Positions 4,618-58,644 of a stretch of 64,000 bases of DNA are shown in pieces. The DNA comes from Blasia pusilla (Eukaryota), in the NCBI GenBank assembly GCA_050084515.1, contig CM114271.1, forward strand, positions 4,216,001 through 4,280,000, written 5' to 3'. Below the pieces are notes generated by a model, which did no database searches, was not told the origin of the DNA, and saw only the letters and a program-made list of their open reading frames with translations. Within the stretch, counting starts at the first letter, position 1. Every line of letters starts with the position of its first letter. The translations under genes and the position numbers were made by a program.

Positions 4618-4661
<44 letters not shown>

Positions 4662-4727
4662 CAAGCACCGTCCAACCAGGGCGTGGGGTCTATGGTCGCA
4701 AGGCTACGACAGGCACTACTTAATGAG

Positions 4728-4768
<41 letters not shown>

Positions 4769-25600: not shown

Positions 25601-26586
25601 TCCGATGTTATGACATTGGGAGGTACGCCCATCGAGGTGTTTCGGCTGGCTGCTATGCTAGGTGAGCGTGGAGTTGGAGTTCTTGCATCACGTTCAGAGG
25701 TGATTGCAGAGGAGGTGATGGACCTGCCCTTGGAGCTTATGCTCAGGCCGTCCACGTTAGATTCATGGTAGGCTACGGCTGCTAGGATGGCGGAGATGCC
25801 CACTAAACCCGCGATAGAGCGTGCCATGGCTTCACCTGGTGTTGTGTAGTTGGATAATCGGGGAGAGGTCTTCGAGTTGGTGAGTCCAGAAGGTAGAGCT
25901 TTTAGTCCGCAACGCGTCTTGTTGGATTCAGGAGCGCAACCCTTGATGTTGGGGAAAGCGTCATTCAGAGGATTGGGTTTGATGAGAGCCAATGTAGAGC
26001 GTTGTCCATTCCGGATATAGACATCCTTGGGTGGAATGAGTACCACCCAGTATATTACCCAATAATAGGTCATGGTGAGGATTCGCCCGGGACATCCTAC
26101 AGATGAGTCCGTGGTGCGAGCCAAGGCGATAGTGACTGATGGAGAGTCCTACGAGGTCTTGGTTGGTGGAGCAGTGTTATACCCGATGGTGTTTTCATTG
26201 GATTACTGGGAGAAGTCAGGGTCCTACAGACCAGGATGGCAGTCAGGTGATGGGCGCCTTAGCTCATTACCCTTTCGATTCAAAGGTGCAGTGATCGAGC
26301 GACGTCTAGGAGAGATGGCGACCTTAGCAGCATTGAGCAGTGCCATCACTTGGCCTAATGATTTGATTGAGGGACATGTCCATACAAAGGATACTACCGT
26401 TCCTAACATTTCTATGGAGAGGAGTGTCATGGTAGTCGCATCAGTCCGTGGAGGAGAGGTGCCGCTTTGGGGCTCGATTGAGGAGCTTCGACGCTTAGCC
26501 ACTAAGCATGTACAGACCGCGTGGAGCGAGATGTTTGCACTAGAGTGTGACGAGTCAGAAGACCCCAAGTAGCTAGGAGTGCCACT

Positions 26587-27590
26587 ATGACCCCTTTGGA
26601 CACCACCCTGATTGTGTGGTGCATCCCAGAGGAGGGTATTCGGGTATTGGATCTCTTTGGAGGGATCAGCACTAGGTTAGTTGTTGTTTTGCAAGCTAGA
26701 GTGCGCGTGCAGCAGTACCTGTATGTGGAGATTGATGATGTTGCGAGGCGCGCTTCCTTTCACCATGTGACGAAATTATGCCTCCGTTTTCCCGACTTAT
26801 TGTCTGCGTCCGCCATTCAGGGTTATGAGAGTTCCCTACCGAGGGACATTTCATTGTTGGAGGCGCAAGACTTTGAGCGGGTAGGGACCATAGACTTGGT
26901 CATTGCTGGTTGGCCATGTCACCGTCAGTTGAGTGTTGGACAGGGTAGCAGATTAGCTGACTCTCGGTCCATGTTGTTTTGGGAGATGATGCGAATCTTG
27001 CGACACTTGCAGGAGCATCAGTCTCGTCCTCCAGCATACATTATGGAGAATGTACCAATTTTGGGCGATTCGAGGTCCCGTGTGGTGACGAGCGCACAGC
27101 AGGTGCGGGCATGGATTGGCTCGGTAGTTTTTTTGGATGCGTCAAGTGTGGGTTCACGAGCGCATCGCCCGTGTGTGTGGTGGACCAACTTGGTGCCACA
27201 TGAGGTGTTACGGAGGGCTTATGCGCGAGTGGGGCTTCCCTCCGAGTTTTTGGTGGATTCTATATTGGATCCGGGCCGTCGATCATTAGCAGTGAGGCAC
27301 GCTGATTGACCGTTGTTGACTGTGGTCATCAGGATTAGCATGCCACGGGCAGCCTTTCCCACATTGGTGAGTTTTCTTGCTTCCTATGCATTCAAGGAGG
27401 CCGGGCCTGGCTTGGTTTGGGATGACTAGGAACAAAGGTTGGTGGAGCCCAACGCCGATGAGCGAGAGCGAGCAATGGGATTCCCTATAGGAGTGATGGC
27501 AGTACTATCACTATCAGAGGCATCACGATGTCATGTATTGGGTCAGGCGATGGACCTAAACTGCTTGACATGGTTTTTCAACTTAGGAGT
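26587..27590 (+). pseudogene. DNMT3-like C5 cytosine methyltransferase domain of element 1
   Basis: Motif I IRVLDLFGGIS; II YVEID; IV DLVIAGWPC; VI YIMENV; VIII LDASSVGSRAHRP..WWTNL; IX ERERAMGFP; X VLGQAMDL. Internal stops at 27307 and ~27427. Confidence 0.9.
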
Positions 27591-29840
27591 AGTTGAGTAG
27601 GGTCGTTTGAGGATGCGACAGATCACAACAGTTGCGTTGGTGAGCCCCGTGCCTACCAAGACGATTAAGGCAGGGGCTGGGGCAAGATCCGAGGAGTCCA
27701 AGGTAGTCTCTCCCGATCACCACGGATGATCGGGAGAGACACCCTTGGACTTCTTGGGATGTTTTGCAGATACGCCAAGAGATGGTAGCCACAACATTGA
27801 GCGTGGTTCCGGGTACTGCACGTGGAGATGAGAGTTCTACTGTCCGAGACGGGGTTGCACCATAGCAACCACCAACACCCGCGCCAAAGAGTCCTACCGA
27901 TGGAGACTTGGGAGCCAGATATGGGCCCTAAGTTGACAAGAGGAGAGCGGCGCCGGATACATCAATTCCTGAGGAGTTATAGGAGCTATTTTGCATTTAG
28001 CATGCAGGATTTGGGTACGTTGAAGGGTCTAGGGATCCCCATTGAGTTGTCGAGTGACACGCCGATCTTCCGATGATCCTACAAATACAGTGATATGGAG
28101 AGGGCTCTGATTCAAACTAGGAGCCAGAACTTGGTTAGAGCAAGACTAGTGAAGATGTCGCATGGAGAGTATGGATCTGCCACTATCATGCCCGCCAAGA
28201 AGGATGTGCATGGCAACTGGACGGATAGGCGGATATGTGGAGATTACCGACCTATCAATTGGCAGACAAAGCCCGATAGGTATGCCATGCCCACCCCTGA
28301 GGAGATCTTTGATATGATTGGGCATGCAAAGGTATTCAATTCATTGGATTTGCAAGCCGGATACCATCAGCTGCCTATCAGATTGGTGGACAGGCAGAAG
28401 ATGGCATCTTGGGGCATTGATTCTCACGAGAAGGATTGTTTGTACCAGTGGCTGTCCTTACCATTCGGGTTAAAGAACGCCCCGGCTGAGTTTCAGAGGA
28501 TCATGGATAGGATCTTGGCATGTCTCGATTTTGCTAGGTGTTATATTGATTACATCGTAGTCTTTAGCATCATGGTTGAGGAGCATGAGGGACATCTAGA
28601 GAAGGTGTTTCGATGATTGCAGTTACATGGGTTGAAGCTACATCCAGGCAAGTGCAAGTTCTTCTACGACCAGATTGAGAACTTGGGTCATACAATATAC
28701 CCAAGGGGCCTTGATGTGCAGCAAATGAAGGTATAGGCTATTTCACGCCCTACAGATGTGAGTCAAGTTTGTGCATTCATGGGATTGGAGAACTTCTATC
28801 GACGGTACGTCAAGGGTTTCAGTTCGATTGCAAAGCCGCTAACCTTGCTGACCAAGGTGGATCAGGAGTGGCATTGGGGGGATGAGCACGAGAGAGCATT
28901 TCAGCTGCTCAAGGATAGATTGATGTCCGCGTCCATATTGAGGAGACCGATCAGGGGGCTTCCTTTCCAGTTGCATACCGTTTGGAGCATGTTGGGGCTT
29001 GGAGCCGTGCTCACCCAACATGACGATGATGGTAGAGAGTTCGTGATGGCTTATGCTAGTCGCTCGAACAACGCTGCAGAGGCAAAGTATAGCTTGTATG
29101 AGGGTGACTGCTTGGCTGCGGCATGGGATGTTGCATATTTTAGGTGTTATTTATTCGGCAACCCCTTTACCATCATTACTGATCATCAGCCACTTAAGTG
29201 GTTGATGGAGTTCGACAAGCTTACAGGGAAGCTTGCGAGGTGGGCTCTTATGTTGCATGAGTATGACTTCCAGGTGGTGCATAGACCTGGGACGCTCAAC
29301 CAGGATGCATAAGGTTTGAGCCGTAACCCATATGGGAGTCAGCGAGATGCGACTGGAGCTCGTTGGCATGGTGAGAGTGATGAGGAGTTGGTGCCAAGAT
29401 GGCACGCATCAGCTTATTTCGGCTTGTTGGCTATGGGGCGCCAGATTGCTGAGACTTCAATGGCAAGGTTTGATGGAGAGTCCTTAGATCCAAAGGCCGG
29501 TGAGGAGACAACTGGTGGCCGAGACATTCACGACTATGGAGTGTTCTTGGAGTATATGCGTACTGGTAGCGTCGCGAGCATAGTGGGTACTAGAGAGCGG
29601 GATCGGATCCTATAGCAAGCCAGACGGTTCCGGTGGGAGGGGACACATGTGTTGTGATTTTGGGAGGATGGTAGAGTGCGTGTGGTGCCTCATCCTTCGC
29701 AGAGAGCACGTTTATTGCGTCATGCCTACGAGGAGTTGGGTCATTTTGGAGTGAAGCGAATGTACAGCTTGCTCCATATACAGTATTGGTGGCGAGGCAT
29801 GCAGACTGACGTTCAACAATTTATTGCCCAATGCATGGTG

Positions 29841-30866
29841 TGTCGCAACCCTAATAACCAAACAACACCAAATAGGCGCCAAGAGGAACATCAAAACTCA
29901 AGGGGACTCACGTTGCGATGTTTGCGCTTTGGAGAGGCGTTTGGAAAGGTCTCTTGGAAAAGTCCAAGAGATGAAACGCGGAACAGATTTGTATGTTTCA
30001 TGCGTTAGTGGTCGCGACCAGGAATACTAGACCAAACGCGAGCCAAGACTTGAGATGAGTTGAGTCTTGGAAGGTTGGTTGCCAAAGAGGTAAGAACCAG
30101 TTTTGGAACACGACTAGCAATTGGGGAATTTGACTGTATTTTGGACCATAACGTTTATCCCCAAGATGAGTTGGGGACAAATAAGGGCGCGTTAGAAAGC
30201 TTATCTTGAGAAGCTTCCAATGCACTAAAGATCTTAGCAAACGCTTAAGTATGGATTGAGATATTGGCCACAAATGATTGTATGAGCAATCGGGTTGAGG
30301 GCCAATTGGAGAGGCCCGGGTGTCTTTCCCTAAATATAGGGAACCCCAGAGATCCCCAGATTACTAGTAAAGGAGGATTCTCTCCAAGATGGCTTGGAAC
30401 ACGAATCCCCACTTTGAGCACCAAACGCCAAACTCCATCACCCCACGGGATGGAGTTTGGCGTTGGAACTCGAAACCCAAACCTAATCCAAGGGAGTGGA
30501 CTTTGTACGCCACCCTTGGATTCCAGCCCGAGATTCACTTTGTGCAAGTGTTGGTTTGGGACTCATTGGATGTCCATCGGATAGTTTGAACCGCCAGGCC
30601 CGAAACGCCGTTTGAAGTTCCTGAACCGACCAGAAAGTCTATCCCAAGTCTTTCGAAACTTGCCCGTGTTGTAAACCGCAAAACTAGGAAGGTTGAGCTT
30701 GATGAGAGACCAAGACGAGAACTCGGAAAGTTAGCTTGCTGATTGATCCAAGACCCGACTAACCAGAGTGCATGTTTGGATGCAGATCAACGTTGAGAGT
30801 AAGACCTACTGAACGCACGCTTCCGCAACAACAAGATTAACGTTCAAGGAGAGTAGGCGCACGACA
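29841..30866. mobile_element. Solo LTR of another family nested in element 1 integrase
   Basis: TGTCG...CGACA termini with 5-bp TSD TGGTG (29836-29840 and 30867-30871). Removing it restores QCMV|CDRVRASFN, matching element 2. Confidence 0.9.
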
Positions 30867-32172
30867 TGGTGTGTGATCGAGTCCGAGCATCGTTCAATTC
30901 TCCGACTCCACAGTTGCATTCACTTCCAATCATGGATTTAGGTTAAAGATGTTGTTTGGATTTTGCAAGACCTTTGCCTTTGACGGAGCGCTATAGTCGT
31001 TATGTGTTGGTGATGGTCGAGCACTTCTCGAAGTGGATAGAGTTGGTTGCATTGCCTCACAAAGCGAGTGAGAGAATAACGTATGCCTTCCTAGATCGAG
31101 TGTTGAGTCATTATAATACACAAGCTAAGGTGTTGAAAGACCAGGGTATAGAGTTTCGCGGGGAGTTTCAGGCCTTGTGTGATCAGGCGTTGATCGGCCA
31201 CCGCACTACTTCGCGAGATCATCCTGAGGCGGATGGACTAGCGGAGAAAGCGATGGTGACAAGAGGATTACGCAAGTATGGCTTGCAAAGAGGTCACCTA
31301 GGAGATTGGGAACTCCAGTTGCCGTGGTTGGCGATGGAATACAGATTCAGCAAGTAGGCATCCTTAGCGTCTTTCCCATCGTACTTCCTTTTCTATGGCC
31401 GAGAGCCAGATTTACTTGCGGCCATTCGTCAAGATGTTGGTCAGGTGTTGAACCTTCATGATCATGATGTATGGATGCGAGCATGTTCTCAAAGGACTGA
31501 GTTGTTTCGAAGAGTGATGCCCATGGCGTTTGAGAAGTTGGCGATTGCACAACATCGGGATACGTTGAGCAATGCGAATATTTGAGGAGGTGATTATCGA
31601 TCTACTATCCGGAGGTTTCATCAGGGAGACTATGTCTACTTGCAGCAGACGGCACCCACGATGTTGGATGTGATTGTAGGGCGTACCATCTTGAGAGTGC
31701 GTGAGGTTTTGCCATCAAGTATTCTCTTATTGGAGGGACGCGATGGTATGGTTTGGAAGGACCATATGAGTAATTGTGCGTCGTGTCACCTTCGGAACAT
31801 TGACGGTACAGTTGATCCGAGTTTAGCAGTAGTTCCTGCAGGCTTGCAATGTATGTTGTGTGGTTATGCCCGTGGTGCAGCCACTATGCTAGTCTGTGAT
31901 GGATGTTTGAGAGGATGGTATATGGCATGCTTGACGCCACCTCTCACTAGGGTTCTTCAGGAACGATGGATGTGTCCCAGATGTACATAGAGTAGGTAGT
32001 TCTACAATCCAACTTGTGTCTGTGACATGGATGATAAGAAGGTGACTAACAATGGGGCCACATGAGCACCCGGCCTTCTTGCTCTTAGCATCCGAGAGAT
32101 GTATGTCATGGTAGGTAAGGATAGATGGCTATCTGGAGTTAGAGGGATCTAACCACCAACTAGGGGGGCGAT

Positions 32173-32961
32173 TGGAGATATTTTTGTACTTCTTGTTTCG
32201 TTGTTTGGATGCCATGAGTTAGCATGGGATCGTGTGTGTTTGTATGTGTGTTCGGTGACAACGATGTATATTGTGTAGGGATGTATATGCGCACGACAAT
32301 TGTCACGTCTTTTAGGATAGATCGGAGAGATCTAGAAGAGCGCCTTTGTGAGTAGTGGAGGATATGCTCAAGAGGTCAAGGATGACCTGCTGAGGCCCTG
32401 GGAAACCTGCTCTCTCAGGTTTCCCAGGGTCTCTCTTAGGTTCCCCTTCATTTCGGCTCATTTGGAGCCATATTGAGGAACTTGCTATTTTAGGTAAATA
32501 CCATTTTGAGTATATGGTCAACTTTCTACTTTTGTTAAATGGCCCTTGATCTCCTACATCAGGTTAAGAGCCAAGGAGGTGACTTGGGAGCATAGGTTAC
32601 TATGGAGAGAGCTTGGGAGAGGGGAGGGGTATACCTTAAGGAGAGAGAGCTTGAGAGCTCATTCTCTCGTTGTTGAACCTCTTGGCACAAGGTGGCGGAG
32701 CTATGGTCTTTTTCCTTGTGAGTGTAACCCAAGCCTCTCATTAGGAGAGTGGGTTTGGTTTGACATGGAGAGAGATATGTGAGAGTGCACACATTTGAGA
32801 GCGATGGTGTAGAGAGAGATTGGATCTTGATTTACTGGAGATATTTTGGTACTTCTTGTCTTGTTGTTTGGATGCCATGAGTTAGCATGGGATCGTGCGT
32901 GTTTTTGTGTGTGTTCGGTGACAGCGTTGTATATTGTGTAGCGATGTGTATGCGCACGAGA
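32173..32961 (+). repeat. Element 1 3' terminus A1-AT-B2-A2, preceded by PPT AGGGGGG (32162-32168)
   Basis: A1 (32173-32298) and A2 (32836-32961) are 126-bp direct repeats flanking B2; junction CGACA-AT-TGTCA at 32294-32305. Confidence 0.92.
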
Positions 32962-34184
32962 GCTTCATCACTCACATCCACCTCTCCAAACGGAGTGCAA
33001 TGGATTTATTTATGCGCATCTCTAAAGTCTTCTAGGGTTTTGAGTTATCTCGGCTTTCACCCAAGGAGGATATAAGATTTTTTGGTGTTGGTTACTTATA
33101 GACCATTCATCACCAAAATTTATGTGCCCTTATTGAGCCAACTACACTCCGTCAACCCCACCAACTTCTCCAATTCTCTGAAGGCAGAGCAATAATGGCA
33201 CTATTTTTGCATGTCTCCAAAGTTATCTAGGGTGGAGGCTCACAGAGGCTTCACTCAAGGTTCTGCGATGCTGGTTAAGATTATTTCCTTCTTACTCCAC
33301 GCTACCGAGCCACATAGACTCCATCTGCCATACCAACTTCTTGGAACGGAGAGTACTAATGGCACTATTTCTCAACATCTCCAAAGTTATCAAGAGTCCA
33401 AGGTTTTCCTAAGGAAAGTACTATTTGGGGATACTTGTTCATACAAGAAAATCACTTCTGCTAATGGGATAAAGTTGGGGAAAATAATTTTTAGGATGGT
33501 GTGGGATTTAATGGATGTCACATCTAAGTAGCCGATAGGTAGGGATCTATCCTGACGATGACATAGAGAGCCGGCGTCCACGGACTATCTTGAATGTAAC
33601 TTCGTCTTGAGGTGTTGAATGGGGTTGAGGATAGTTCCGTTGTGTCAGAAACGTCGTTTCTAACAACTTTTCTGTTTGGGTCTTTCACAGTTGAGTGACT
33701 TACTAAAGAAGTCACCCGAATATATGTGCGCGCAGGTTACCAAGAGGATTTCTATTTTTAGGGGAAGAGCCTTTTGGCTCTTCTCACACCTATATATGGG
33801 AGAGGGATGGTTTTCCCAAGCCATCTTTCTCATGTTGGGCCATTGGAGCATCTCTCTTGTTCGTGTGTGAGAAAGAACCAGGGTGCTAGCGTCCGGATTC
33901 CTTAATAGTACAAGATGGACGAGGCTCGATATGCCAATGTAGATTGAGGAGTGGAGTTTTAGACTAGATGTGCCATTTTTACTCTTATTTTTGTTGTATG
34001 ATCTCGATGTACATGCATGAGTTGATTTTTGTTCATGTGTGGATCTATCCGTATGTTGGGGAAGATTGGTGTTGTATGGTGTAGATGTGACCAGCGATAT
34101 GTATGCACACAACATGGATATAAGAATTTTTTTTAATGAAAATTCTATATTCTTATTGCATAATACCTTTTTTGGTCAAATTCC

Positions 34185-35604: not shown

Positions 35605-38449
35605 TATATGTTAACTAGTGCACTGAAAATGCCTCCACTCTTACTTGTGTCATGCAAATTAGCGAGATGTAGTAGCATGTCATTCACACAAATTTAAGTT
35701 TTTAAGATGATAAACATCTATCTACTCACTTAAAAAAATTGATTTCATTTCAAAAATATTTCAACTCTAGAAAAGGAAAGAAATACCCCATCATTATATT
35801 ATGAAGTTTTATTTATAACATTACTTCTTGATTAATTCACCTAATTTATTTCAATCTACCTAATCTAGTTTCATCACGTGCTCCATTCACAAATAGCTTC
35901 ATATAACGCAATGATTCCCCTTATTTTCTTTCCACAAGAGATGATTTGACACCTCTTTTTTTTAAATAGCTTCACTTCTTTTAGAATAAACTTCCCTCAC
36001 ACATTAACACCACTTTCCTTAATTAATAGTATAGATTATAACTAATTTATCTCTTTTGGGCATAGAATAGTATCATCAAGAAGAAAAAATCACTAAAATC
36101 CTCCCATAAACATTTTCAAACTTTCTCCCTCCACGGTGTACATTAAATGGACATAAGTGAACTCAATAAATATGGGAGGTTATGATATCGATACCTTTTT
36201 TTATCCATAAAAGTTCATCAAAATCATTGAAACAAAGTGATAAATGTTACTCATATTCATAAGACTTTGTGTTGCATATAAAGGTAGCATTAGTGAGTGA
36301 TCTCTATGAATTATTAGGAGATATATTATTGTAGTCATTCCTTCAAAGTTTTTATAAATTTGAGAGTGGAATGTGCACAAATGAGTATGATCATACCTTA
36401 AGAAATAATGAACAAAATGGAGAAAAAAATCATGATATTAAAAATATGGTCATGGTAAATTTTTAGTGATGGTGTTTCTATGTAAGCATTATTATGCCAT
36501 TAAGGTTTTGGCTATGATTCTACCATATATTCCATATTGATGTCAAAATAGAAAATCATATGCATTACAAAAAAGTGTGCTCTTAGTGTACACAAATTTT
36601 GACCAAGAAAACCTAATAAGAAGTGTCAAAGCACAAAGGAACTAACACATGTATAATCTACGGTCAAGCAAGAACTTGTTTAGAAAGTGACAAGTAGCAA
36701 AAATATAAGAATTTGCTTACAAGATCGAGCTCTTTCCTTGTTCCAATTTCTTTTGTGGCTAATATCTAGAATCAATTTTTTAACAAGTAAAAATACATCC
36801 TTGGAAAGGTATTTAGAAATGTTATAATGCACCTCAACAATTTTGAAAGTATATCTAGACAATTTACAAAGAAGTAATTTCTTAGCTCTAGATCTAAACA
36901 TCTCATAAATACATGAAGGGAAGGGAAAAGTTCCAAGTGGCTACCGATCATCTTTTGGGTAATTTCTTAATGTGATTTCTACACTATGATATTAGGGTGC
37001 ATAAGTAGTAAAAAATAATTACCATGGGAAGTTTAATATGAAAGAAGAAGTGGAGAGACTTGGAGTGAGGAAGAGATAAATTTCTTAAGGGAAGGTGGAT
37101 GACTTTTTCTTCTCTAAGTGAGGAGGTAGAGAATTTGGGAACCTTGTTTTCCTCAATTAAGGAAGGATGATAGTTTCCAAAATGAGGAGGATGAATTGGG
37201 GGTTTTCTTATTCCCAAAACTAATAGGTGGAAAGGATGAATTTCCAAATGAAGGAGGGGGCCATGGAGTGAACTTTCAAAATGTGCAATAAAGGAAAAAG
37301 TGCATTGAAATTTTCTCAAAATGAGCATAAGAATTTGTTATGTTTAATTTGTGCAATGCATGAGCGCAATAAATCTTTTCTTTATTCAATAGACTTCCCT
37401 CTTAAATATGAAGCACTAAAGAGACAAGAAAAACCATACAAAAAAAAGCCACAAATATTTTCCAATAACCAAGAAGGGGAAACTATCAAACATAAAATAG
37501 AGAATGAGAATATCCCACAAGAAAAAATAGACAATGCATGAATTATTTAATACTATTAATAATTTGTGTGCAATGTATGAGAGTCATATTAACATGTACC
37601 AAATTCTTATCATGTTAGATAGTTTTCCAATCCACATTTTTTTTTCATAGAAAAAAGCCATTTAAACAATACGATGAACTCTTTGAAAGACCGGATGCAT
37701 CAACATTCCATCATGAGGCTTCACTTAGTTTAGAATATTATTTCCATGATAAGCTCTATTATTTTAATTCTAAATTAGATGAGTATTGTTCCATTCATAC
37801 TTAGCCACATGCAACCTAGTGATTTCCTTATTTACTTTCCATAAGAGATGATATGATACTTCATATTTGCCTCTTGAAAATAGCTACAATTCTCTTCGAA
37901 TTGACTTTCCTCACATAAACCCTCTTCCCATTGTCCCTTACTCAATTAATAATATAAAGGCTATACTATATTTTACATGACTTAAAAGAAGGATGGCAAG
38001 TGTTCAAGGTGGAATATGTCCACTACTAAATCTTGATATGTTAAGACTACAAGAATACTCATCAACTTTCTTATGTCATCCACTAGGCATCCCTCTCATC
38101 AATGTTAAAGTTTGAGTGTGATAACTATCTTTCCATTTTTTTAAAATTCCCCTTTTCTATTCTCATAAAATGATTCCAATTATGAATATTCCAACTTTAT
38201 GCTAGGCAAGAATATCTCATCTTTCAGATTTATGACTTGCAAGGTGTATCCCTAATGGCATTCCTTCATCCTCGCGTGCTTCACTTTGCCAAGCATACCA
38301 ACTTAGCTAATTGGATGTCATCCAAGTTGGCATGTATCCATTGTATGAGTTAGTGGTTGATATTGTGGATACTGGATCCTTCACATCCTCCACTACTAGT
38401 ATATTCTTTGAATTTGGGCGGAAGAAATTGTGATGTTCCTCTAAATCTC

Positions 38450-39032
38450 TGTCGTGCGAATCCACATCGTCATACAACATACATCGCTGACATACCATAC
38501 TCACATACATACATAACATAGACGAGAGCATCCACAAACACAAGTGTACCACAACTGAAATCCGTGAAAGACCTACTGTCATAAAACACGTATAGAATCA
38601 CATACAATCGAGCCAAACCCACTCCACGATGGGAGAATCTAGGTCGAAGCTTGCAGGAGACACCATAGCCAAGAGCTCTACTCACTACCAAGGCTTACTC
38701 CCAACACAACAGGCTCAACTCAAAGAACTGACTGTTCTTTGAGTGCACTCCACCTTATATCCTCCAACCTAAGAGTGGGCCCTACTGGAGAAGTCACCCT
38801 CAACTGAGTAACCCCCAACCCTATGTATGAAATTGCATCTCTACCTAGACACTGCGGCCCTACATAAGGTATGGCCTCTACTAGCACACTATACTCTACG
38901 ACATAATCCGTATGGTCATGACAGCTGTCGTGCGAATCCACATCGTCATACAACATACATCGCTGACATACCATACTCACATACATACATAACATAGACG
39001 AGAGCATCCAGAAACACAAGTGTACCACAACT
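38450..39032 (-). repeat. Element 2 3' terminus A1-GC-B2-A2, preceded by PPT (plus-strand C-run 39033-39039)
   Basis: 107-bp A repeats flank a 368-bp B; junction TGACA-GC-TGTCG at 38919-38930. Confidence 0.95.
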
Positions 39033-39203
39033 CCCCCCCTAACTAGCGGTTAGGTCCCTCTAACTCCCAGGTAGCCTTATACATCTACTACATGCTATAA
39101 ACCTTCTTCGGTGCACGAATCAGAAGGCCGGGTGCTAGGTTGCCCCATCGTTAGTCGCACATCTATAATCCATATCATGCAAAGATCAAGTCATCTACCT
39201 CTC

Positions 39204-42200
39204 CTAAGTACATCGAGGACAAACCCACCTTCCTGTAGGAACAACATCCATACGTGGAGTCAAACACATCATGTGCCAACCCCTAGAACACCGATCACAC
39301 ACCAACATACGGGCTGCGTTACCAGCAGACCCACACAACATGCACCTCAAGCTAGCACGTTTCATGGCTAAGCTTGGGTCAACAGTACCATCCACATTTG
39401 GAAGATGAGATGGCGCACAATTACGCACATGGTCCTTCCAAAAAACTCCATCACGATCCTCCAACATTAGAACTCCAGAAGCTAACACCTCGCGCACTCG
39501 TAAAATAGTACGGCCTGCCGTCACATCCAACATTGTCGGTGCAGTCTGCTGCAAATAGACATAGTCCCCCACATGGAACCTATGAATCGATGGTCGATAA
39601 CCTCCACCCCGAATGGTTGCATACCGCAACGTATCCCTCTGTTGAGCAATTGCAAGATTCTCATAGGCTGTTGGCATAACTCTCCGAAAGAGCTCTGCCC
39701 GCTGAGAACACACTCTCATCCACATCTCTGGGTCATCAAGGTTCACCACCTCACTAGACTCCGACAATTGATCTTTGGCAAGTCTGGATCTCGGCCGTAT
39801 AACAGAAAATAAGGTGAGAAGGAAGCCAAGGATGCTTGGCAACTGAACCTATACCCCATGGCTAACCATGGCAACTGAATATCCCAGTCTCCAAGATGCC
39901 CCTTTTGTAGGCCATACTTGCGCAATGCCTTCTTCACCGTCTGAACCACACGCTCAGCCAAACCATCCGCCTCTGGATGATCTCGAGACGTGGTCCGATG
40001 ATCAATCAACGCCTTGTCACACAAGACCTGAAACTCACCCTAAAACTCTGTACCCTGGTCGGTCAACACTTCATCTGGTGCACCAAAATGACTAAGCACT
40101 CTATCAAGAAACGCATACGCCGTTCCCTCACTTGCCTTGTCAGGTAACGCCACCAACTCAATCCACTTGGAGAAGTGCTCCACCATCACCAACACATATC
40201 GATGATGTCGTACAGTCAACGGTAACGGTCCCGCAAAGTCCACACTCCAATGGTAATCCAACCCCATAATAGGCAAGGGGTGTAACTGTGGTGTAGGGGC
40301 ATTGAATGATGCCCTCACCCGGTCACAAACCATACAACGTGACACCAACTGCTGGACCTGAGTATGCATGCCACGCCACCAATACTGACCAAGGAGTAAG
40401 CTATACGTACACTTTAACCCAAAATATCCCAACTCCTCATGGGCATGTCGCACAATCCGCTCTCTCTGAGCCAAATGCGGCACTACTCGTACTCTACCAT
40501 CCTCCCACACACGGAGAATATGTGTTCCCTCCAATCGATACCTCTTAGCACGTTGAAGAACACGGTCTCGCTCCTTGGCACTCACTATGCCTGGCACCCT
40601 ACTGGTCCGTGGGAACTCCAATACCAACGCATCATGATGAATATCACGCTGATCCGTACCACCATCTCCAACCTTAGGATCTGAAGGCTGGCCATCTCCC
40701 CTCTGACTAGAGTAAGATATCATGTGGTTCTCCATACTAGAGTCCACCCCTAACCAACATAAAAAGGTGGATGCATGCCAACCTGGCACCATCTCCTCAT
40801 CAACCTCGCCATGCCATCTAGCCCCAGTTGTATCCTCTTGGCTAGTACATGGGTTCCTACTCAACCCATCAAAGATCAAGGTTGGCAACTCCGTTCTATG
40901 TACCACCCGGAAGTCATACTCCTGTAAGATAAGAGCCCACCGTGCAAGCTTCCCTGTAAGCTTGTCAGACTCCATCAATCACTTGAGTGGCTGATGATCA
41001 GTAACAAGGGTAAACTGTGTGCCAAACAAGTAACACCTAAAGTGTGCCACAACCCACACTACAGCCAAGCACTCTCCCTCATATGAACTATAACGCGACT
41101 CTGCTGCATTATTCGAACGACTTGCATATGCCACCACAAACTCCATGTGCTCATCATCATGTTGTGTCAACACCGCTCCAAGTCCCAACCTACTCCAATC
41201 AGTGTGTAACTGAAATGGGCGCCCTCTAATAGGTCTCCTCAAGATAGGCGCCGCCACCAACTGGGCCTTAAGCTCCACAAAAGCTCTCTCCTGATCATCT
41301 CCCCATTGCCACTCTTGATCTGATTTCAGCAATTGGTTCAAAGGCTTTGCCATAGCACTAAATCCCTTCACATACCTCCGATAGTAGTTCGCCAATCCCA
41401 TGAATGCTCGAACTCTACTCACATCTACCGGACGTAGAATAAGTGCAATAGCCTCCACCTTTGCTTGCTGAACTCCCAAACCACCTGGATAGATCACATG
41501 ACCCAAGTACTCAACATCCTCATGGAAGAACTTACACTTTCCTGGATGCAAACGTAGACCATGAGCTTTCAACCGCTCAAACATCATCTGCAAATGTATC
41601 TGATGCTCCTCCATCGTGTTACTGAACACCAAGATATCATCAATGTAACATCGAACAAAATCCAACCCTGCTAGGATCCTGTCCATCACTCTCTGAAACT
41701 CAGCAGGTGCATTCTTCAACCCAAAGGGTAAGAATTTCCATTGGTACAAACAATCCTTGCCATGAGAGTTGACACCCCAAAATGCTGTCTTGGCCTTGTC
41801 ACTCTCCCGAATCGGAAATTGATGGTATCCTGCCCGAAGATCCAAAGTACTAAAAATCTTTGCCTGTCCCACCACATCAAAGATCTCCTCAGGTGTAGGC
41901 ATGGCATACCTATCGACCTTGGTTTGCCGATTGATAGGACGGTAATCTCCACACATCCGCCTATCCGTGTAGTTGCCATGCATATCCTTTTTAGCAGGCA
42001 TGACAGTGGCTGATGCATACTCTCCATGCGACAAATCCACTAATCTAGCCTCCAAAAGGTCCAACGTCCTACTCTGAATCAGGTCCCTCTCCCTATCACT
42101 ATATCGGTAGGGACGACGGAAGATTGGCGTATCACTAGCCAAATCAATCCGTATACCGGGTCCAACCAGAGAACCCAACTCCTTCATGCTAAAGGCAAAA

Positions 42201-45200
42201 CAACTCCTATAAGCATGTAGGAACTGTGTCAAGCGTCGTTTCTCACCTCCCGTAAGCTTGGGCCCAAGTAATGGCTCCCAAGTCTCCTCCACTGACACAC
42301 TAGAGGGAGAGGACGATGCCATTAGCTGCTACGCAACCCCCTCACAAGATGGTACACCCTTAGCTACACCATCATCTGAGCAAATAACTCCTCCACCAGC
42401 ATGAGCAACCAACTCCACATGCCCAGCCATTACATCCCATTTACTCCAAGGATGCAAAATACTACTCTCCTCGCCCCCAGCCGATGCCTCTACCGTCCCG
42501 GTAGCCATCGAGCTCATTACAAGGGGTGGAAGATCCACATACATAGTCTGAAGTCAACGCTGCTCGGCCATACCAAGACTCAAAATCCAAGTCAAACAAT
42601 TCAGGTCCATGGCCTGACCCAACACATAACGTCGTGAAGCCTCAGAAATGGAAGCAACCGTTGTCACACCAGTAGCAAATCCCATCGCACGCTCTCTCTT
42701 ATAAGCATTAGGCTCCACCAACTGTCGCACATGAGAATCCCATACAAGCCCAGGACCACCTTCCCTATATGCATGTGACGAGGGAAAACTCACAAATGTG
42801 GGTAGTGCCATCCTAGGCTGGCCCACACGGTTCACCACTGCCATGGGTGACCGATCAATAACCCTCACCACCTGAGAAAGTCGCCCAGTATCCAAGATAC
42901 TATCCACTGTAAGGGAAGGTATCGCTGCACTGCATTATATGCTCGACGTAGAACCTCCCTAGGCAACAAGTTTGTCCACCACAAGCATGGACGATGTGCA
43001 CGCGAGCCAACTCGCGCTGCATCTAACAACACCGCTGGTCCAATCCAAGACCGCATCTCATGAACACTCGCCATCATCCGGGTCCGAGTGTCACCCAACA
43101 ATGGAACATTCTCCAGAATGTAAGCTAAAGCACGTGCCTGATGAACCTGAAGATGTCGTAACACCCGTAACATCTCCCAAAACAATCGAGACCTAGGGTC
43201 GTGTAATCCCTCACCACGACCAGCACGTGTATGACACTGACATGGCCATCCCGCAATCACCAAATCCACAGGACCAACCCTCTCAAGGTCCTGCGCCCCC
43301 AACAATGCAATGTGTGACGGCAAAGCACGCTGGTACCCACGAATAGCTGATGGCGGCAACAACTCAGGATATCTCCGCATCAACTGACCAATATTTCGGG
43401 ATGAGACTCTCTGGGCCGTCTCATCTCGCTCCACATACACGTATCTCCGCACAGGAATACCGACTTACAACACTGCAACCAAACCAGTGCTAATCCCACC
43501 CAAGAGATCTAACACACAAATGCCCTCCACCGGATACTGCCATACAATGGGTGTAGTATCCAAAGGGATAATCCAACTGGACCAGAAGTAGGAGTCCGCC
43601 GTGGGGCCTCCTCTTCCTCGTGAGGTATAACAGCCTCACACCAAGCCTCTTGCACTAGGCGATCAGCCTCCTGCCGTAGTGCACCGCCTGAACTCCAAAG
43701 TGGCACATCCAACGATGAGGATGCCACTGCTGCAAAAATAGTGACCTCCTCTACCTCCTCATGCGCAGGAGAATCCATAGCATAAACATTACCCTCCAAA
43801 AAGTCTCCTGGCCAAGTGACTACTCCACTAAAACCAACCACAGATGCTAACACTGTTGGGGAAGACCCTCTTGGTCAAGCCCCATAAATAAATCTCACAG
43901 GAACTTGGCTCATACGTCCATCCCCGCACTGCCAACCAAGTCTATAAGACGTTGTCTCGGTCCAGTAATCCATCCAAAAACCCATCGGGTACAATATTAC
44001 TCCTCCAACTAGTACATCATACGACTCGGCTGATGTGACTACCGCAGATACTCCCAACCGGGAGCTATCAGTCGCATGATCTGGTCTCAACTATACAGAA
44101 AACTTCTCTCGTGTCATGAATTGAGACCTATCGTTGGCTCCTCCAAGTGATGTTTGAATCTGGAATGGGCAAGGCTCAAGCTCTGACCTCCGAATACCCA
44201 AACCAATACATGCCGCCTTTCCCAACATCAAAGGTTGGGCACCAGAGTCTAACAAGACTCTATCTGGTCTATACACATATCCTGTAGGACTCACCAATCA
44301 GAATATCCCACTCCGGTTGTCCAACATACATACACCAGGTGTAAGCCTCTCACGATCAATGGCTGGCCGGGCGGGTAATGCATCCATCTTCGCCGTTGCT
44401 GCCTGCCAAGTAGCATTGGTACTCAATGCTACACTTGACATAGAGGGTCTCTCCACCGCAAAACCCTCATCCACCTCAACACGTGTAGCAGTAACACCCC
44501 CACGTTCACACAACGTGGCTGCTAGCTGAAATACAGGAGCTAAGTCAACTCCTAAAGCCATCAACTCCGTGGCCGAAAAAAATGGGGATCCCAACACTGA
44601 AGTTTCCATCCGCAATACTGCACTAGATGCTGCATCCGTGTCTACTACACGCGATGTAGATGCCTCAGTCCCCACTGTCGGCTCAATAGGTTGCGTAGGA
44701 ACCATGGATGGAGTCCTAAGCACCTCAGACAATAAGAATGACTGGGGAAGCCTAGCCTGCCTCCCAGCCTCACCCCTTTGTGGGTCCAACTCCACAGTAG
44801 CACCACGTGGCTGTGATGCTCGAGTGGATCCTCTCGTAACTGCAGCTGATGCCTCAACCTGTGCTGCACTTGCCATATAAGAGAAATCATCCCCTCCATA
44901 AGAGGTGGAAGCCCCTGCTCCCGAACCTGATCTATGTTGGATCCCAGCCATAGTAGCCAACTCGCTCCAATCTGCTCAATCTGGCGACCATAGATGACTC
45001 TGTCGTAGTGGTAGGGGTAGCCACCGTAGGCTCTCCAACCACTGGTCCACCTCTACCACCCCTACCACCTCTACCACCTCGGCCTCTCGGAGCTACTCCA
45101 CCACGGCCGCGGCCTGATCTCAACTCTGGATGAAGATCAAAGCAACGCTCTCGAGGATGACCTGGTCTCCCGCAATGATCACACTGAGTTGGGGCCGACT

Positions 45201-46400
45201 GAGGCCCATCCTCCAAAGTCCGTCTCCCATCCTCTTGGGACAAAACTTCCTAACATGATCACCTCCACATGTCTAACATGACTGTCCTTGCTGCGGGGCA
45301 GCAAATGAAGGAAATGGTCTCTGCGCAAGTGTCCCTCTAGGACCTGACTGAGGTCGTGTGTACCCCCCACGACTCCCACTACTACTACCACCACCACTAC
45401 TACGAGACTATGAGGTGGGCTGCTGAACACGAGAAGTAGTAGTTGTATCCCTACTGAATGCGGATGTCACCACTCTCTCCTTCACCATGTTAAGCTCAAT
45501 CTTCTCAGATAGAGCAAACACATGGGTCAATGTGGGTGAATCATCACTCATAAGAGTAGCATCACGTACCCTGCGGCGCAACTCTCTGTCCAAGATCCCA
45601 TACCAAAACAAGACTGCCTGAGCCTCAGTCACACCCTCGGTAACTAAAATCAAGCGTCGCATATGAGTGTATGCCTCACGAAGACTCTCACTAGTCTTTC
45701 GCTCAAATTCTTGAAGACTCCTCAACTTCTCTGTCTTCACTCCCTGATAGTTCTTCTTCAACCTCTTGAAGAACTCTGCAACCGGGCTAAACGACGGTGG
45801 GGCACTAGTACCTCCACTAGTACCTCCATGGGTACCTCCACTGGTACTCCCAATCCGGCTCGTACTCGTACTACCCAACGTCAGGCTAGCTGGCATAGTA
45901 GGAGCACTACTACCAATACCACCATGGGTGATAGACACATAGCCTGGAGACCAATATTGTCTCCACGCCTAAATCTCAGCAACATGGTCCTTCCTAAACT
46001 CATGGTAATCATCCATGGGTGGTCCCTCCAAGTGCTGAAACAACCCCTTCCAAGCCAAGAAGGATGTAAACAACGTGGCGTTCCGCAACATCTGCATATC
46101 ACACCGCGTATCAAACTCCTGCATGAAGTCCTCCAACTCAATGGTGCCCATTGCACCCGAGTATTGTCGTGGGCCCTTCATGGCCCCATATATCTCATCC
46201 ATGTCCCAAATCAATGGAGCTGCAACACTCGATAACAACGTAGAAGACTCGGTGTTTGGAACACCCTCGTCCTCCTCTTCATCAACGGTCGGAAGTGGAA
46301 AAGGTAGCCGATACCTAAATCCACTCCGTGTGAAACCACCACTGTCCGCACCACGGTCCCCAACCAGACCACCCGACAGCTCCGTGATGACCAATGCCAA
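39204..46400 (-). pseudogene. Element 2 gag-pol polyprotein: gag (CCHC knuckle, RGG tract), PR, DNMT, RT, RH, IN, PHD
   Basis: CDHCGRPGHPRERC; VLLDSGAQPL; RT YIDD intact; RH LHTDWS..SYEGECLA..TDHQPL; IN WSVDFAGP/LTDQGTEF/GLAERV; PHD C4HC3. Adjacent ORF pieces are mostly in one frame, separated by point stops and a few frameshifts. Confidence 0.93.
42560..43560 (-). pseudogene. DNMT3-like C5 cytosine methyltransferase domain of element 2
   Basis: ICVLDLLGGISTGL..YVERD..PVDLVIAGWPCQ..SRLFWEMLRVL..YILENV..LLDAARVGSRAHRP..WWTNL..RERAMGF..VLGQAMDL, with one stop and a frameshift. Confidence 0.92.
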
Positions 46401-47915
46401 TGCCGCACCACCACCAAATTACCACCACTAAGTAACCAAGTGACGTCGATGTCGCTATACTATTCTAGCTCTACTAGCTATGGGTGTAGGCAACCTAACC
46501 TCTCATCACCACATGAAGCCTCCCACGGTCTACTGGTCATCACTCCAGCCTCACTACCGGTAGCACATAGGAGTAACACTACTCTGGAAATCAGCGTCAA
46601 CCCTAACAATGGGCGTGCAAGCAAGAAGCAACGATGGAGGGGATCCAAACACAGGAAGTCCAACGACAACCCTCCAATTGCAAATGGAAATCAAGATAAC
46701 ACAATCCACAAACGTGGCGCCCCCTGAACCCACAAAACCCACCACACAATTCTAACGCAATAGTTACTCCGCCGCGGGTCGATGACGTGCTAGTCGAACT
46801 CGCAGCACCTGAAAATATCACTTGCATGGAGAGGCTACACCGTACTATACGCTAGAGGTACATCAACCAAAAACCTGAGATGCATAAAGCGCCTAACATA
46901 TCTTCGAACAGCACCAAATGAGCTACAATAGTGTGTACACTGGCATAGTTAAGAACTCAGCAGCTAAGCGTCCTCTAGGCACAATAGCCCAAAGATGGAT
47001 GACCAGTTATGCAACACTCAAATCATAAATCCTGCAAAAATTGCCTAACGCCCAAGCAAGCAAGCTTGCTTGCTTGCTCCTTGCTCCTTACTCCGCCTCT
47101 CACGCCCACTCGCCCCGACCTACCACGAGTTGCATCGAAGCCTCAAAACGCCGAGAAATGCTCGAGACATGCCCCTATCGCCACGCTTGCCATGCTTCGC
47201 TATGGAGATAGGCCCAACCAGGGCGCCCCCAATGGGATAGGCGTCTCCAAAAATGAACGAGTCACCAACCAACCAGCCCCTCCGATCCGCTGTCCACCAT
47301 AGCTAGACCTTGAGCTAGTCCGCAAAATTTTGATCAGCAATTACTTCACAAATCCTTGACCAAAATTGAATCTATTTTGACCAAAATTCAATTGGCCACC
47401 ATAGCTATCTCTCCACAAAAAATCAGCTACAACGGAGCTCTGTACTCCGAGCTAAAAATCAGACAAACTTGCTGTCCATACACCTCCAGAATCGCAAATT
47501 CGACAGCGCTTCAGCCCAGTTTCATGCACGCAGAAATCCGCAACGCTCCACACACTCGATCAAATAGCTTCACATGAGATCACAATACAAGTAGCAACAA
47601 GAACCTCTCACCCGATCTGGATGAACTTCAACAGAGCTTCCGCACTCCACGCTCTCCTCATCAGAAAACCGTCCAACACGAACCAGAATCTTCAATCCTT
47701 GATAACTTCCAACTCCCTTGACGAAATCCAGCGATCTAAAGCACGTTGTAAAGCTCTCAGCAAGGCGCTTCTTTCCCAACCAACCAGGCACCAGATTCAC
47801 ACCTCCAACATAGGCCACAAGCCACGAACATTCACGGCCGAGTACACAATCAACCCTAACCAGATCCTACTGATCCACTATCGAAGCTACCATCGATCTA
47901 TTCTAGTTCTTTGAG

Positions 47916-48283
47916 TGAAATTCGTGAAAGACCTACTGTCATAAACCACGTATAGAATCACATACAATCAAGCCAAACCCACTCCACGATGGGAGAATCT
48001 AGGTCGAAGCTTGCGGGAAACACCATAGCCAAGAGCTCTACTCACTACCAAGGCTAACTCCCAACACAACAGGCTCAACTCAAAGAACTGACTGTTCTTT
48101 GAGTGCACTCCACCTTATATCCTCCTACCTAAGAGCGGGCCCTATTGGAGAAGTCACCCTCAACTGAATAACCCCCAACCCTATGTATGAAATCGCATCT
48201 CTACCTAGACACTGCGGCCCTACATAAGGTATGGCCTCTACTAGCACACTATACTCTACGACATAATCCGTATGGTCATGACA
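47916..48283 (-). repeat. Element 2 repeat B1 (5' terminal, promoter-bearing)
   Basis: Copy of 38556-38923; minus-strand ATATAA at 48120-48115 and Inr TCAGTT with +1 at ~48089. Confidence 0.93.
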
Positions 48284-49083
48284 TCTCTAAAAACCATTGT
48301 ATGTTCCTTTGGGTGCGTCGCCTTACGATCATCTCTTATCACTTCTTATAACTTTATTGGCTTCTTCTATTCATTCAACTAATTAAATAACATAATCACT
48401 TCTCGAGCTTGATTCCTTATTCTTATCATATTGTATCTATGATCTAACCCTTAAGAAACATAAAGTAAACAAAATACTGGCATGACATTATGTAATTAGA
48501 TTGATGTCTACTACCATCCCTCCCAAGGTATTTAGGATGCCCAAACATACCATAAACCTTGCAAACTCAATCGATTTTCTTTCCTTAAGATATAACATTA
48601 TACCACATGATTCCTTTTTTTTAAAAAGAAAATCTCGATTGTCTTAGAAAATTCTTTCCTAACTTAAATATTGCTTTCTCCCTTCCAACTCGCATCCCCT
48701 CTCATCAATTAATAATATAGATTGAGAAACAAGAGAGAAACAAGAGTAGGAAGATTAAACCTCCTAAGAGCAACATTCCTTGCTGTTAGAACACAACTCC
48801 AAAACTTATTTCTTAGGTATCTTACAGAGTAAAGCGAACAAAATAATAATTAAAAGTGAAATTATGGACATTATTCTACCAATCAATGTGAAATTCATGA
48901 TTTTGAATAGGAATGAAAGACCTCTCCTATCCTTCACGACAATGTATAAATTGCACTAAAGAAATCTAAGTTCCATTAATGTGTGGAGTATTTTATTTTT
49001 GCACAATGGAGGAAAAGATATTGTATTAAAACAGAATGGCTATCAATTGATAATATTAATAAGAAAAAAAAGCAGAGTGGATA

Positions 49084-51541: not shown

Positions 51542-51859
51542 CATGATTGCAAAAAATTGGAAAAGTCCATTCTTACGATGGACATGCACGGAAAAGTCAA
51601 GACATGTCCATGGACATGCACTGCAAGAGGTGGGGCCCACACTTATAGTTTATAATGGAAGGCAGGGGAAATTGGGCAATAAGGCGGGAGGGAGTGGAGA
51701 TGGAGGGAAGAAGAAACAAGAAAGTATGAATAATGAAGGCAAGTAGGGAGAATGAGAAAGAAGGGGAAAGTAGGATCCACATGGACAAGTACCTTCATAG
51801 GATTGATGTAAGTCCATGGACATATCCTCGGACACGAAATTTGTCCACATGCAACCTTG
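51542..51859. mobile_element. hAT-type MITE
   Basis: CATGATTGCA ... TGCAACCTTG; TSD ATTGATCA/GTTGATCA (1 mismatch); body similar to 58329-58644. Confidence 0.8.
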
Positions 51860-58328: not shown

Positions 58329-58644
58329 CATGGTTGCACAAAAATGGACAAGTTTTTCTGAGAGACAGACAACATGGACAAGTTTCAAAAGATGGGGCCC
58401 ACACTTATAATTCATGATGGAGGGCAAAGCAAGGGTGGACGGGGCAATAAGCGGGGGAGGGAGTGGAGGTGGGAGGAGGAAGAAACAAGAAAGTGCGGAT
58501 CATAAAAGCAAGTGTGGGGGATGAGAAAGAAGGGAGAGATGGGGCCCATATGGACAAGTCCTTCAGACTCCTTCTATAGGACGGACGTAAGTCCACGGAC
58601 ACAAACATGTCTACGAACACGGACTTTGTACATATGCAACCTTG
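58329..58644. mobile_element. hAT-type MITE
   Basis: CATGGTTGCA ... TGCAACCTTG; 8-bp TSD CAAACGTC. Confidence 0.88.

Follow-up and report, generated by a model that had tools for sequence, protein, structure and literature searches.

Asymmetric split direct repeats and an internal palindrome in Gypsy-DNMT3 retrotransposons that carry a DDE integrase

A stretch of 64,000 nucleotides (nt) from Blasia pusilla (GenBank assembly GCA_050084515.1, contig CM114271.1, positions 4,216,001 to 4,280,000 of the forward strand), called the window below, contains two related retrotransposons, element 1 (38450-48283) and element 2 (22184-32961), whose repeats follow an asymmetric order. Coordinates are positions in this 64-kb window, and element 1 is read on the minus strand, on which its features lie. 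In the textbook account of long terminal repeat (LTR) retroelements, integrase acts on the two ends of a linear complementary DNA (cDNA) and leaves two equal LTRs. The equal-LTR half of this rule is broken at every copy examined here, and the anatomy implies that the lineage also breaks the half that concerns linear cDNA ends. From its first to its last feature, element 1 consists of a target site duplication (TSD), a repeat B, a primer binding site (PBS), gag and protease (PR), a DNMT3-type methyltransferase, reverse transcriptase (RT), RNase H, integrase (IN), a PHD finger, a polypurine tract (PPT), and then A-GC-B-A, followed by the second TSD. Judged by its sequence, element 1 is a Ty3/gypsy LTR retrotransposon of the streptophyte Gypsy-DNMT3 lineage, with the gene order gag-PR-DNMT3-RT-RNaseH-IN(H2C2, DDE)-PHD.

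An initial annotation of this DNA had described a lone B of 368 nt at the 5' end, PPT-A-GC-B-A at the 3' end and a flanking TCTC, and all of these were found where it had placed them. The TSD on the 5' side (48284-48287) reads TCTC on the plus strand and GAGA on the element strand, and equals that on the 3' side (38446-38449, TCTC on the plus strand). Next to it stands B1, the sole 5' repeat (47916-48283, 368 nt), which starts with TGTCATGACC, ends with TTTCA, and comprises, in this order, U3 sequence containing a TATA-like box, R and U5. This box, TATAAG (48114-48119), presumably acts as a promoter; its last base lies 25 nt upstream of AGTTCTTTGAG (48079-48089), which is predicted to form both nt 1-11 of the transcript and the self-primer. 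The PBS, CTCAAAGAACT (47905-47915), follows immediately 3' of B1.

The internal region is recognizable throughout but damaged. It comprises a gag region in two adjoining frames (45408-46418) with a weak Retrotrans_gag match (E 0.016), a CCHC zinc-knuckle frame (44932-45249) in whose translation CxxCxxxGHxxxxC can be seen by eye, a DNMT3-like C5 cytosine methyltransferase within pol (42554-43464; PF00145, E 4e-9) that is split over two frames, RT and RNase H (40979-42328; RVT_1, RT_RNaseH_2 and RT_RNaseH in Pfam), and an integrase with an H2C2 zinc domain and an rve core (39743-40978; PF17921 and PF00665). The C-terminal region of the integrase (39204-39848) closes with a PHD finger (39204-39344; PF00628, E 1e-10). 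One in-frame stop parts RNase H from IN and another lies within IN at 40040-40042; pol also carries frameshifts, and the upstream domains lie in differing frames. Element 1 is a degraded, dead copy.

At the 3' end, the PPT TTAGGGGGGGA (39032-39042, G-rich at 39033-39039) adjoins A1 (38926-39031; GTTGTGG...CGCACGACA; alternative outer limit 39032). A GC spacer (38924-38925) separates A1 from B2 (38557-38923; alternative inner limit 38556), so that the A1/B2 border forms a perfect 10-bp palindrome, GACA-GC-TGTC (38920-38929), which is the proposed cleavage site of the integrase. Through the joint TTTCA-G-TTGTGG, B2 passes into A2 (38450-38556), which ends in CGACA beside the TSD. B1 and B2 are identical in 356 of 368 aligned columns and A1 and A2 in 106 of 107; one base at the B-A and PPT-A borders is ambiguous, and A therefore measures 106 or 107 nt. 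The B-B pair had been said to lack both a TSD and a terminal CA: it does lack the TSD, but B begins with TG and ends with CA. LTR finders would call B the LTR and miss A2 and the TSD.

Element 2, on the plus strand, shows the same layout, B1-internal-PPT-A1-AT-B2-A2, between GCTT TSDs (22180-22183 and 32962-32965). Its B1 (22184-22696, TGTCAGG...GATTTAC) is followed by a putative PBS, AAAGAAAGAATGAG (22697-22710), and by a degraded internal region (22711-32159) in which tblastn detects gag, DNMT, RT, RNase H, IN and PHD, the methylase and the PHD finger being also matched by PF00145 and PF00628. The PHD finger (31586-31990) again stands at the end of the integrase, and IN is interrupted by about 950 nt of extra sequence (29873-30821). 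The PPT CTAGGGGGGCGAT (32160-32172) precedes A1 (32173-32298), which is identical to A2 at 115 of 127 positions; the palindrome GACA-AT-TGTC (32295-32304), B2 (32301-32835) and A2 (32836-32961) follow, and A2 ends in CGAGA, one change from CGACA. Gene order is the same as in element 1 and protein identity is 57-70% (tblastn). Element 2 is an older member of the same lineage, belonging to a different family. Its repeat pairs are just 87-91% alike, a divergence that rules out an assembly duplication.

Relatives beyond the window were sought by scanning the RT frame against metagenome contigs. From the 183 relatives that this yielded, the best 80 (L001-L080, each a distinct locus, 49-86% identity in the best segment) were taken and searched with the A and B sequences from the window and three loci. 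A or B was matched in 47 of the 80 loci. The 33 loci with no match were omitted from the counts; 31 of them have less than 2.5 kb after RT, and the other two, L062 and L069, have 3.1-3.5 kb, in which no PPT-like motif was found. L056, whose contig stops inside A, was also omitted. An A repeat occurs 3' of RT in 36 loci. Ten of these (7 distinct places) have the order A-xy-B(-A), where xy is the two-base spacer, and hence the long form; five more (3 places) have rearranged versions of it, 20 (17 places) pass from A directly into unrelated flank, and one ends within A. At the other end the picture is uniform: wherever the start of B1 is intact, at 23 places (21 in the metagenome, 2 in the window), the 5' end is B alone, with unrelated flank before it. 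Integrated copies thus finish with A-xy-B-A or with A alone at the 3' end, and all of them start at TGTC, the start of B, and finish at GACA, the end of A. Symmetric copies with ordinary B-A LTRs at both ends, which the initial annotation had named as the outcome that would speak against its reading, numbered zero in the window and the metagenome loci, and no copy has an identical repeat unit at both ends.

The TSDs delimit the same unit. Terminal order and TSD length, which the initial annotation had proposed to tabulate, were compiled over the two window elements and the related metagenome loci, and 4-bp TSDs are perfect in 11 of the 13 copies in which both ends can be assessed. They are perfect in all five long forms (TCTC in element 1, GCTT in element 2, AAGG in L023, CATA in L039/40 and TCTC in L046), in the one rearranged long form (CACA in L013), and in five of seven short forms (TGTT in L007, ATTA in L012, TACA in L015, TGTG in L026 and TACA in L072). 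The asymmetric unit B-internal-A-xy-B-A is therefore what lies between the TSDs, as had been claimed. Divergence within the A pair and within the B pair is about equal inside each of five elements, as expected from a single insertion event. Recurrence in element 2 and at 7 metagenome places, the TSDs and the equal divergence of the pairs place the layout beyond chance or assembly artefact, and support B-internal-A-xy-B-A as a property of the lineage, not a one-off. A nested insertion, or a solo LTR lying beside an element, was considered and rejected, since the order is found repeatedly and TSDs enclose the entire unit.

Assembly across repeats deserves a separate word, since either the short forms or the A-xy-B-A order might be an artefact of it. 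The metagenome contigs are presumably short-read assemblies in which A and B repeats form loops in the assembly graph, and the DNA contigs aligned to the window are short, none of those listed spanning the stretch. Against this, the order is repeated in element 2, whose repeat pairs are so divergent that no assembler would duplicate them; independent assemblies of the same place, two or three each, agree in form at five of five places (long at L032/33 and L038/39/40, short at L006/15, L007/54 and L066/67); the short forms show no sign of being younger than the long ones, so that their A copies would have been equally distinguishable; and TSDs flank five of five long forms. An assembly origin is scarcely credible.

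The proteins place the lineage among Ty3/gypsy elements. Pfam recognizes in element 1 RVT_1, two gypsy-type RNase H families (PF17917/PF17919), Integrase_H2C2, rve, PHD and the C5 DNA methylase, the last located between gag/PR and RT in pol; PF00145 is present in both window elements. In L019, a more intact relative, a single frame of 957 amino acids contains gag and zf-CCHC together with a weak match to an aspartyl protease, and zf-CCHC was found by Pfam there only, not in element 1. The nearest solved structure to the RT-RNase H-IN frame of L019 is the Ty3 Gag-Pol polyprotein 7q5b (E 3e-86), and the nearest solved relatives of the methylase frame are DNMT3A, DNMT3B and DNMT3C. Among named RT matches the best are from Calypogeia fissa (83%) and Marchantia (62%), with further matches in Closterium (about 45-50%) and in Klebsormidium nitens (KFL_015370020, 51%, a protein not assigned to KnitGypsy-Dnmt3, the Gypsy-Dnmt3 elements of that alga). 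The initial annotation had recognized an HHCC-DDE integrase and no tyrosine recombinase. The enzyme is indeed an H2C2 plus rve (DDE) integrase by PF17921 and PF00665, and no Pfam Phage_integrase match was obtained in the longer frames on both strands of element 1 (batches of 10, 4 and 10 frames, one frame duplicated) or in two long frames of L019. The PHD finger closes the integrase where chromoviruses carry a chromodomain, and it might guide target choice via histone marks; a DNMT3 domain and a PHD finger joined with an integrase bear on how such a transposon handles host chromatin. Neither de Mendoza et al. 2018 (PMC5890265) nor Neumann et al. 2019 (PMC6317226) mentions PHD in the main text, and the PHD finger of the Gypsy-DNMT3 lineage may be unreported so far.

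The layout itself has a precedent. No description of it in DDE elements was known to the initial annotation, a claim contradicted by the legend of Fig. 4c in de Mendoza et al. 2018 (PMC5890265), where KnitGypsy-Dnmt3 is given a DIRS-type repeat structure with Gypsy domains. KnitGypsy-Dnmt3, as described in that legend, resembles the window elements in its DNMT3-type methyltransferase inside a Gypsy pol and in its DIRS-like repeats, and differs in its algal host, the members described here being of liverwort type. Of these two hallmarks, DNMT3 in a Gypsy pol is present in both window elements, and the DIRS-like repeat order is present in both and at 7 metagenome places. A 2026 preprint (10.64898/2026.05.21.726589) contains a passing mention of 'streptophytes (Gypsy-DNMT3)'. 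The main text of de Mendoza et al. 2018 (PMC5890265), supplements aside, has no TSD, PBS, PPT, palindrome, short form or mechanism. Among the papers listed in a full-text search on split direct repeats and integrase, none concerned a DDE element by title or abstract, and broader searches gave no further precedent beyond de Mendoza et al. 2018. A DDE element with this layout has thus been published before, and the window adds liverwort-type members; the TSDs, the self-primer, the internal palindrome, the nature of the B-A joint and the short form were not found in the searched literature and are added by the present analysis.

The long form contains two junctions, A1-xy-B2 and B2-A2. The 10-bp palindrome at the former is intact in element 1, element 2, L023, L046, L053 and L059, and among nine places its spacer xy is GC at five, AT at two and AC at two. 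The best-conserved block of LTR sequence between element 1-type and element 2-type families extends from the final ~45 nt of A through the palindrome to nt 7 of B. The B2-A2 joint reads TTTCA-G-TTGTGG at 5 of 10 places (element 1, L032/33, L038-40, L047 and L059) and TTTTCA-A-TTGTGG at two (L023 and L070). In element 2 GATTTAC is followed by TGGAGAT; in L046 the end of B is followed by a 17-nt filler, then CGAG (the four last PPT bases), then A; and in L013/L049 by an 11-nt copy of the PBS, then GCTAG (~5 nt, close to the PPT end), then A. Junctions of 2-LTR circles are mostly precise and sometimes hold primer remnants, and the variant joints resemble what we take to be the aberrant forms of such junctions. 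At two places, L013:11338-12236 (shared with L049) and L070:3318-3603, an internal deletion or inversion has left a rearranged copy of the long type; in both, the leftover piece of B begins within ~10 nt of the predicted transcript start. These rearrangements may be a trace of aberrant strand transfer.

How the RNA is copied can be read from the two ends of the internal region. The 11 nt after B1, CTCAAAGAACT, can pair over their full length with AGTTCTTTGAG within B, at 11 of 11 positions in element 1, L007, L023 and L029, and the PBS 11-mer of element 1 also follows B1 in L007, L023, L029, L039, L040, L046, L071, L072 and others. A subfamily formed by L026 and L032/L033 has a PBS TTCGAAG... 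and a primer ...CTTCGAA in place of CTCAAAG and CTTTGAG, that is, two compensatory changes. In element 2 the PBS/primer pair is unrelated to that of element 1, yet AAAGAAAGAATGAG and CTCATTCTCTCTT are complementary at 12 of 13 positions, and CTCATTCTCTCTT sits in B 28 nt past a TATAC (counted on the sequence). As the sequence after B pairs with 11 nt within B and the subfamily has compensatory changes, this complementarity establishes self-priming, as in Tf1, as the predicted mode of minus-strand synthesis, together with a predicted transcript start, and it fixes the end of B as the U5/PBS border. The self-primer of Tf1 is also 11 nt long, and in priming of this type RNase H frees it by cutting after nt 11. 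Self-priming has been reported for Tf1/Sushi and for plant Tcn1, which share with the window lineage the lack of a tRNA-type PBS and a transcript 5' end complementary to the sequence after U5 (Neumann et al. 2019, PMC6317226). They differ in having two ordinary LTRs and a chromodomain where the window lineage has a PHD finger. At the other end, the PPT adjoining A1 is kept in relatives as CTAGGGGGG(C/T)GAG. B also contains a hairpin (CTCAAAGAAC...GTTCTTTGAG) with an upstream arm that repeats the PBS sequence; it was considered as a second primer site and rejected, the arm showing no covariation in L026/L032.

Two stranded RNA runs with the same species label as the window, aligned to it, give sense RNA over the whole of element 1. 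Sense depth in the two runs is 122-190 in the A1 bin, 46-66 in the B2 bin and 0.4-1.2 in the bin of A2 and flank. Because depth falls within B2 to this level over A2, transcripts pass A1 and xy into B2 and end there, and A2 lies outside the RNA. B1 and B2 are 97% alike, so that reads inside B cannot be assigned to either copy, and B1/B2 'joints' among aligned DNA contigs are placement ambiguity between the two. At window positions 39034-39035 many RNA and DNA reads coming from the internal, PPT side continue into an A of element 2 type, not of element 1 type; expressed subfamilies thus pair internal regions with A repeats in mixed combinations. Two skips also occur in the RNA reads, one of 1007 nt that is replaced by 9 other letters (window 39676-40684; 13 and 21 reads), the other of 96 nt across the PPT and part of A1 (window 38981-39078; 7 and 6 reads). 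The ends of these skips are not GT..AG on the element strand, and their appearance is that of transcribed deletion derivatives, not of introns.

The repeat order would also suit replication in the manner of DIRS and Ngaro carried out with a DDE enzyme. The transcript would lack the outer parts of B1 and A2, the A1-xy-B2 joint would serve as a bridging template for a single-stranded cDNA circle B-internal-A-xy-B-A-xy, and the integrase would open the rebuilt joint. The split direct repeat order is indeed the one shared with Ngaro, PAT-like and DIRS elements, Ngaro being given as A1-[ORFs]-B1A2B2 (PMC8547959), and de Mendoza et al. (PMC5890265) term the layout DIRS-like. Furthermore, such replication predicts the long form alone, in keeping with the absence of the other permutation, B-A-xy-B-internal-A, from all 23 places with an intact B1 start. 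It is weakened by the very low transcription of A2, by the covarying self-primer PBS after B1 and the PPT before A1, which are the marks of ordinary two-jump reverse transcription, by the PBS and PPT remnants at the joints of L013/L049 and L046, which better fit joined double-stranded cDNA ends, and by the 17 short-form places, which it does not predict. The enzymes differ as well: Ngaro, PAT-like and DIRS elements encode a tyrosine recombinase, in whose place the window elements have the H2C2 plus rve integrase. Ngaro, PAT and DIRS elements are not known to make a TSD on insertion, a further difference from the window lineage with its 4-bp TSDs and its gypsy-type RNase H. Altogether, DIRS-style replication is improbable.

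We favour instead, as the probable core of the mechanism, an LTR of the form A-xy-B made by reverse transcription and an integrase that cuts the palindrome inside it. Since the PPT precedes A, the PBS follows B and the RNA stops in the 3' B, standard two-jump reverse transcription would yield the LTR A-xy-B and a linear cDNA [A-xy-B]-internal-[A-xy-B]. Most marks of Ty3/gypsy are in place: the pol order PR-RT-RNase H-IN with an RT nearest to the Ty3 type, TG...CA ends (TGTC...GACA) with a TSD in the usual 4-6 bp range, and a PBS beside U5 with a PPT beside U3. What departs from them is the absence of two equal LTRs on the integrated copy and the LTR A-xy-B, permuted relative to the integrated ends. 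Those ends, TGTC and GACA, would abut inside each cDNA LTR as the palindrome GACA-xy-TGTC. There the integrase would cut each strand 3' of CA, as it ordinarily does, leaving two recessed CA-3'OH ends with 2-nt 5' overhangs, which would be joined to the target in concert. For the long, replicative form B-internal-A-xy-B-A, the cDNA termini (the end of B and the start of A) would first be joined, whether by formation of a 2-LTR circle, by head-to-tail concatenation or through a template jump of RT from end to end, and opening of the joined product at the palindrome of the 5' LTR would give the long form, its B2-A2 joint being the joint between cDNA termini. The short form B-internal-A could arise from cutting both palindromes of the linear cDNA or the sole palindrome of a 1-LTR circle; it would lack the 3' R and should be dead on arrival. 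The distinct integration strategy suggested in the initial annotation thereby takes on a concrete form and is plausible, as a strategy that we infer from the copies left behind.

Retroviral integrases offer the closest parallel for such a cut. Integrases of PFV (Delelis 2005, PMC1180852) and HIV-1 (Delelis 2007, PMC1905944) cleave a palindromic LTR-LTR junction internally, the DDE enzyme cutting the palindrome of abutted CA...TG ends into two 3'-processed ends. This retroviral palindrome arises only after end ligation and its role is debated, whereas in the window lineage it would be built into every LTR that RT makes, and integration ends apparently come from the internal palindrome alone. 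A retroviral circle junction has 4 nt between CA and TG, against 2 nt in the window lineage. Circle junctions of the insertion sequence (IS) types IS3, IS30 and IS911, and the rve-type Ginger transposons, have abutted inverted ends with a 2-3 bp spacer as the substrate of a DDE enzyme, TG...CA termini and short TSDs. These systems are DNA-only, whereas in the window lineage the junction passes through RNA and is copied by RT.

This likeness raises the question of whether the B-internal-A unit, with its TGTC...GACA ends, moves as DNA, with the integrase serving as a cut-and-paste or copy-out transposase of Ginger or IS kind and A-xy-B as the circle junction. Short inverted termini, 4-bp TSDs, abutted ends and a 2-bp spacer all recall IS circle junctions and Ginger, and the short form, at 17 places, is the commonest. 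However, gag, PR, RT, RNase H, the PPT and the covarying self-primer/PBS are kept and serve reverse transcription only, sense RNA covers the whole element, and the xy-B-A tail is explained by joining of cDNA ends, primer remnants included. Transposition as DNA is very improbable.

The short form has no terminal repeat whatsoever, yet carries 4-bp TSDs, and it occupies 17 places (L006/L015, L007/L054, L008, L009, L012, L016, L022, L026, L027, L043, L044, L051, L058, L060, L063, L066/L067 and L072), compared with 7 for the long form. Because it has no terminal repeat, LTR finders may overlook it. Perhaps the long form alone integrates, the short form arising later by unequal A1xA2 recombination or slippage; circles would then be opened at either palindrome at random, and the other permutation would have decayed faster via its close B repeats. 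In keeping with this, the RT tree has short forms scattered among long ones, the terminal branches of short forms are somewhat longer (median 0.070 vs 0.051), their TSDs fit equally well as with direct integration, and the lack of the other permutation is explained with no enzyme asymmetry. On the other hand, the difference in branch length is not significant (Mann-Whitney p = 0.28, n = 9 and 17), loss through A1xA2 is not fast because long forms persist at ~87-91% repeat-pair identity, and no solo B-A unit, the product of B1xB2 recombination, was found in the 711,915 bases of loci plus window, a sample centred on and picked around RT genes. We consider this explanation unlikely, if by no means negligible.

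Several points nevertheless weigh against cleavage of an internal palindrome as the route taken. Every step after transcription is one that we infer, no extrachromosomal cDNA form having been observed. Random opening of a 2-LTR circle should make B-A-xy-B-internal-A about as common as the long form, and its absence (0 of 23) means that the precursor or the choice of site is asymmetric, that this form decays fast via its close B repeats, or that the model is incomplete. The asymmetry might come from end-to-end jumps by the plus strand alone, or from only the 5' LTR being fully double-stranded. The short forms could stem from A1xA2 recombination and not from integration, and two of seven have imperfect TSDs (3 of 4 bases in L044, none in L067). 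As for the RNA, the reads come mostly from other copies, only 79 of 4465 and 51 of 4402 aligned reads being at least 99% alike; pile-ups at 38697 and 38762 are weak (5-14 molecules), with one situated upstream of the predicted start, and neither the transcript start nor the poly(A) site was located.

Extended to the whole lineage, the proposal becomes more tentative. It may be, with the chances slightly below even, that DDE-integrase LTR elements from streptophyte algae to liverworts moved their attachment (att) ends into the LTR interior as a palindrome, in which case integration never uses linear cDNA ends and needs a restriction-like integrase cut at that palindrome in circular or end-joined cDNA. 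The integration pathway of the lineage, so far unexplored, is probably non-canonical. The circle junction as an integration substrate is an old idea that was given up for retroviruses, and these elements would, if the proposal is true, represent its natural and obligatory version. They would also provide a concrete model for the origin of split direct repeats, which may extend to Ngaro and PAT, and a mechanistic bridge from LTR elements to DIRS/Ngaro and to IS-type circle-junction transposition. Most new insertions, being of the short form, would be dead on arrival like 5'-truncated LINEs. Furthermore, the lineage would offer a natural and tractable setting in which to study how an integrase cleaves an internal palindrome, an activity shown in vitro and in foamy virus whose biological role is disputed (PMC1180852, PMC1905944).

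Outside the two elements, the window holds a third reverse transcriptase (60585-61890, plus strand; RVT_1 E 1.5e-28), which has 34% identity to element 1 and belongs to another retroelement. Upstream of it lies a pair of 105-nt direct repeats (51686-51790 and 58455-58559) that are 79% alike. In addition, a unit of about 91 nt occurs four times at 4660-5183, with spacings of 247, 88 and 98 nt, each unit closing with a (TC)n run.

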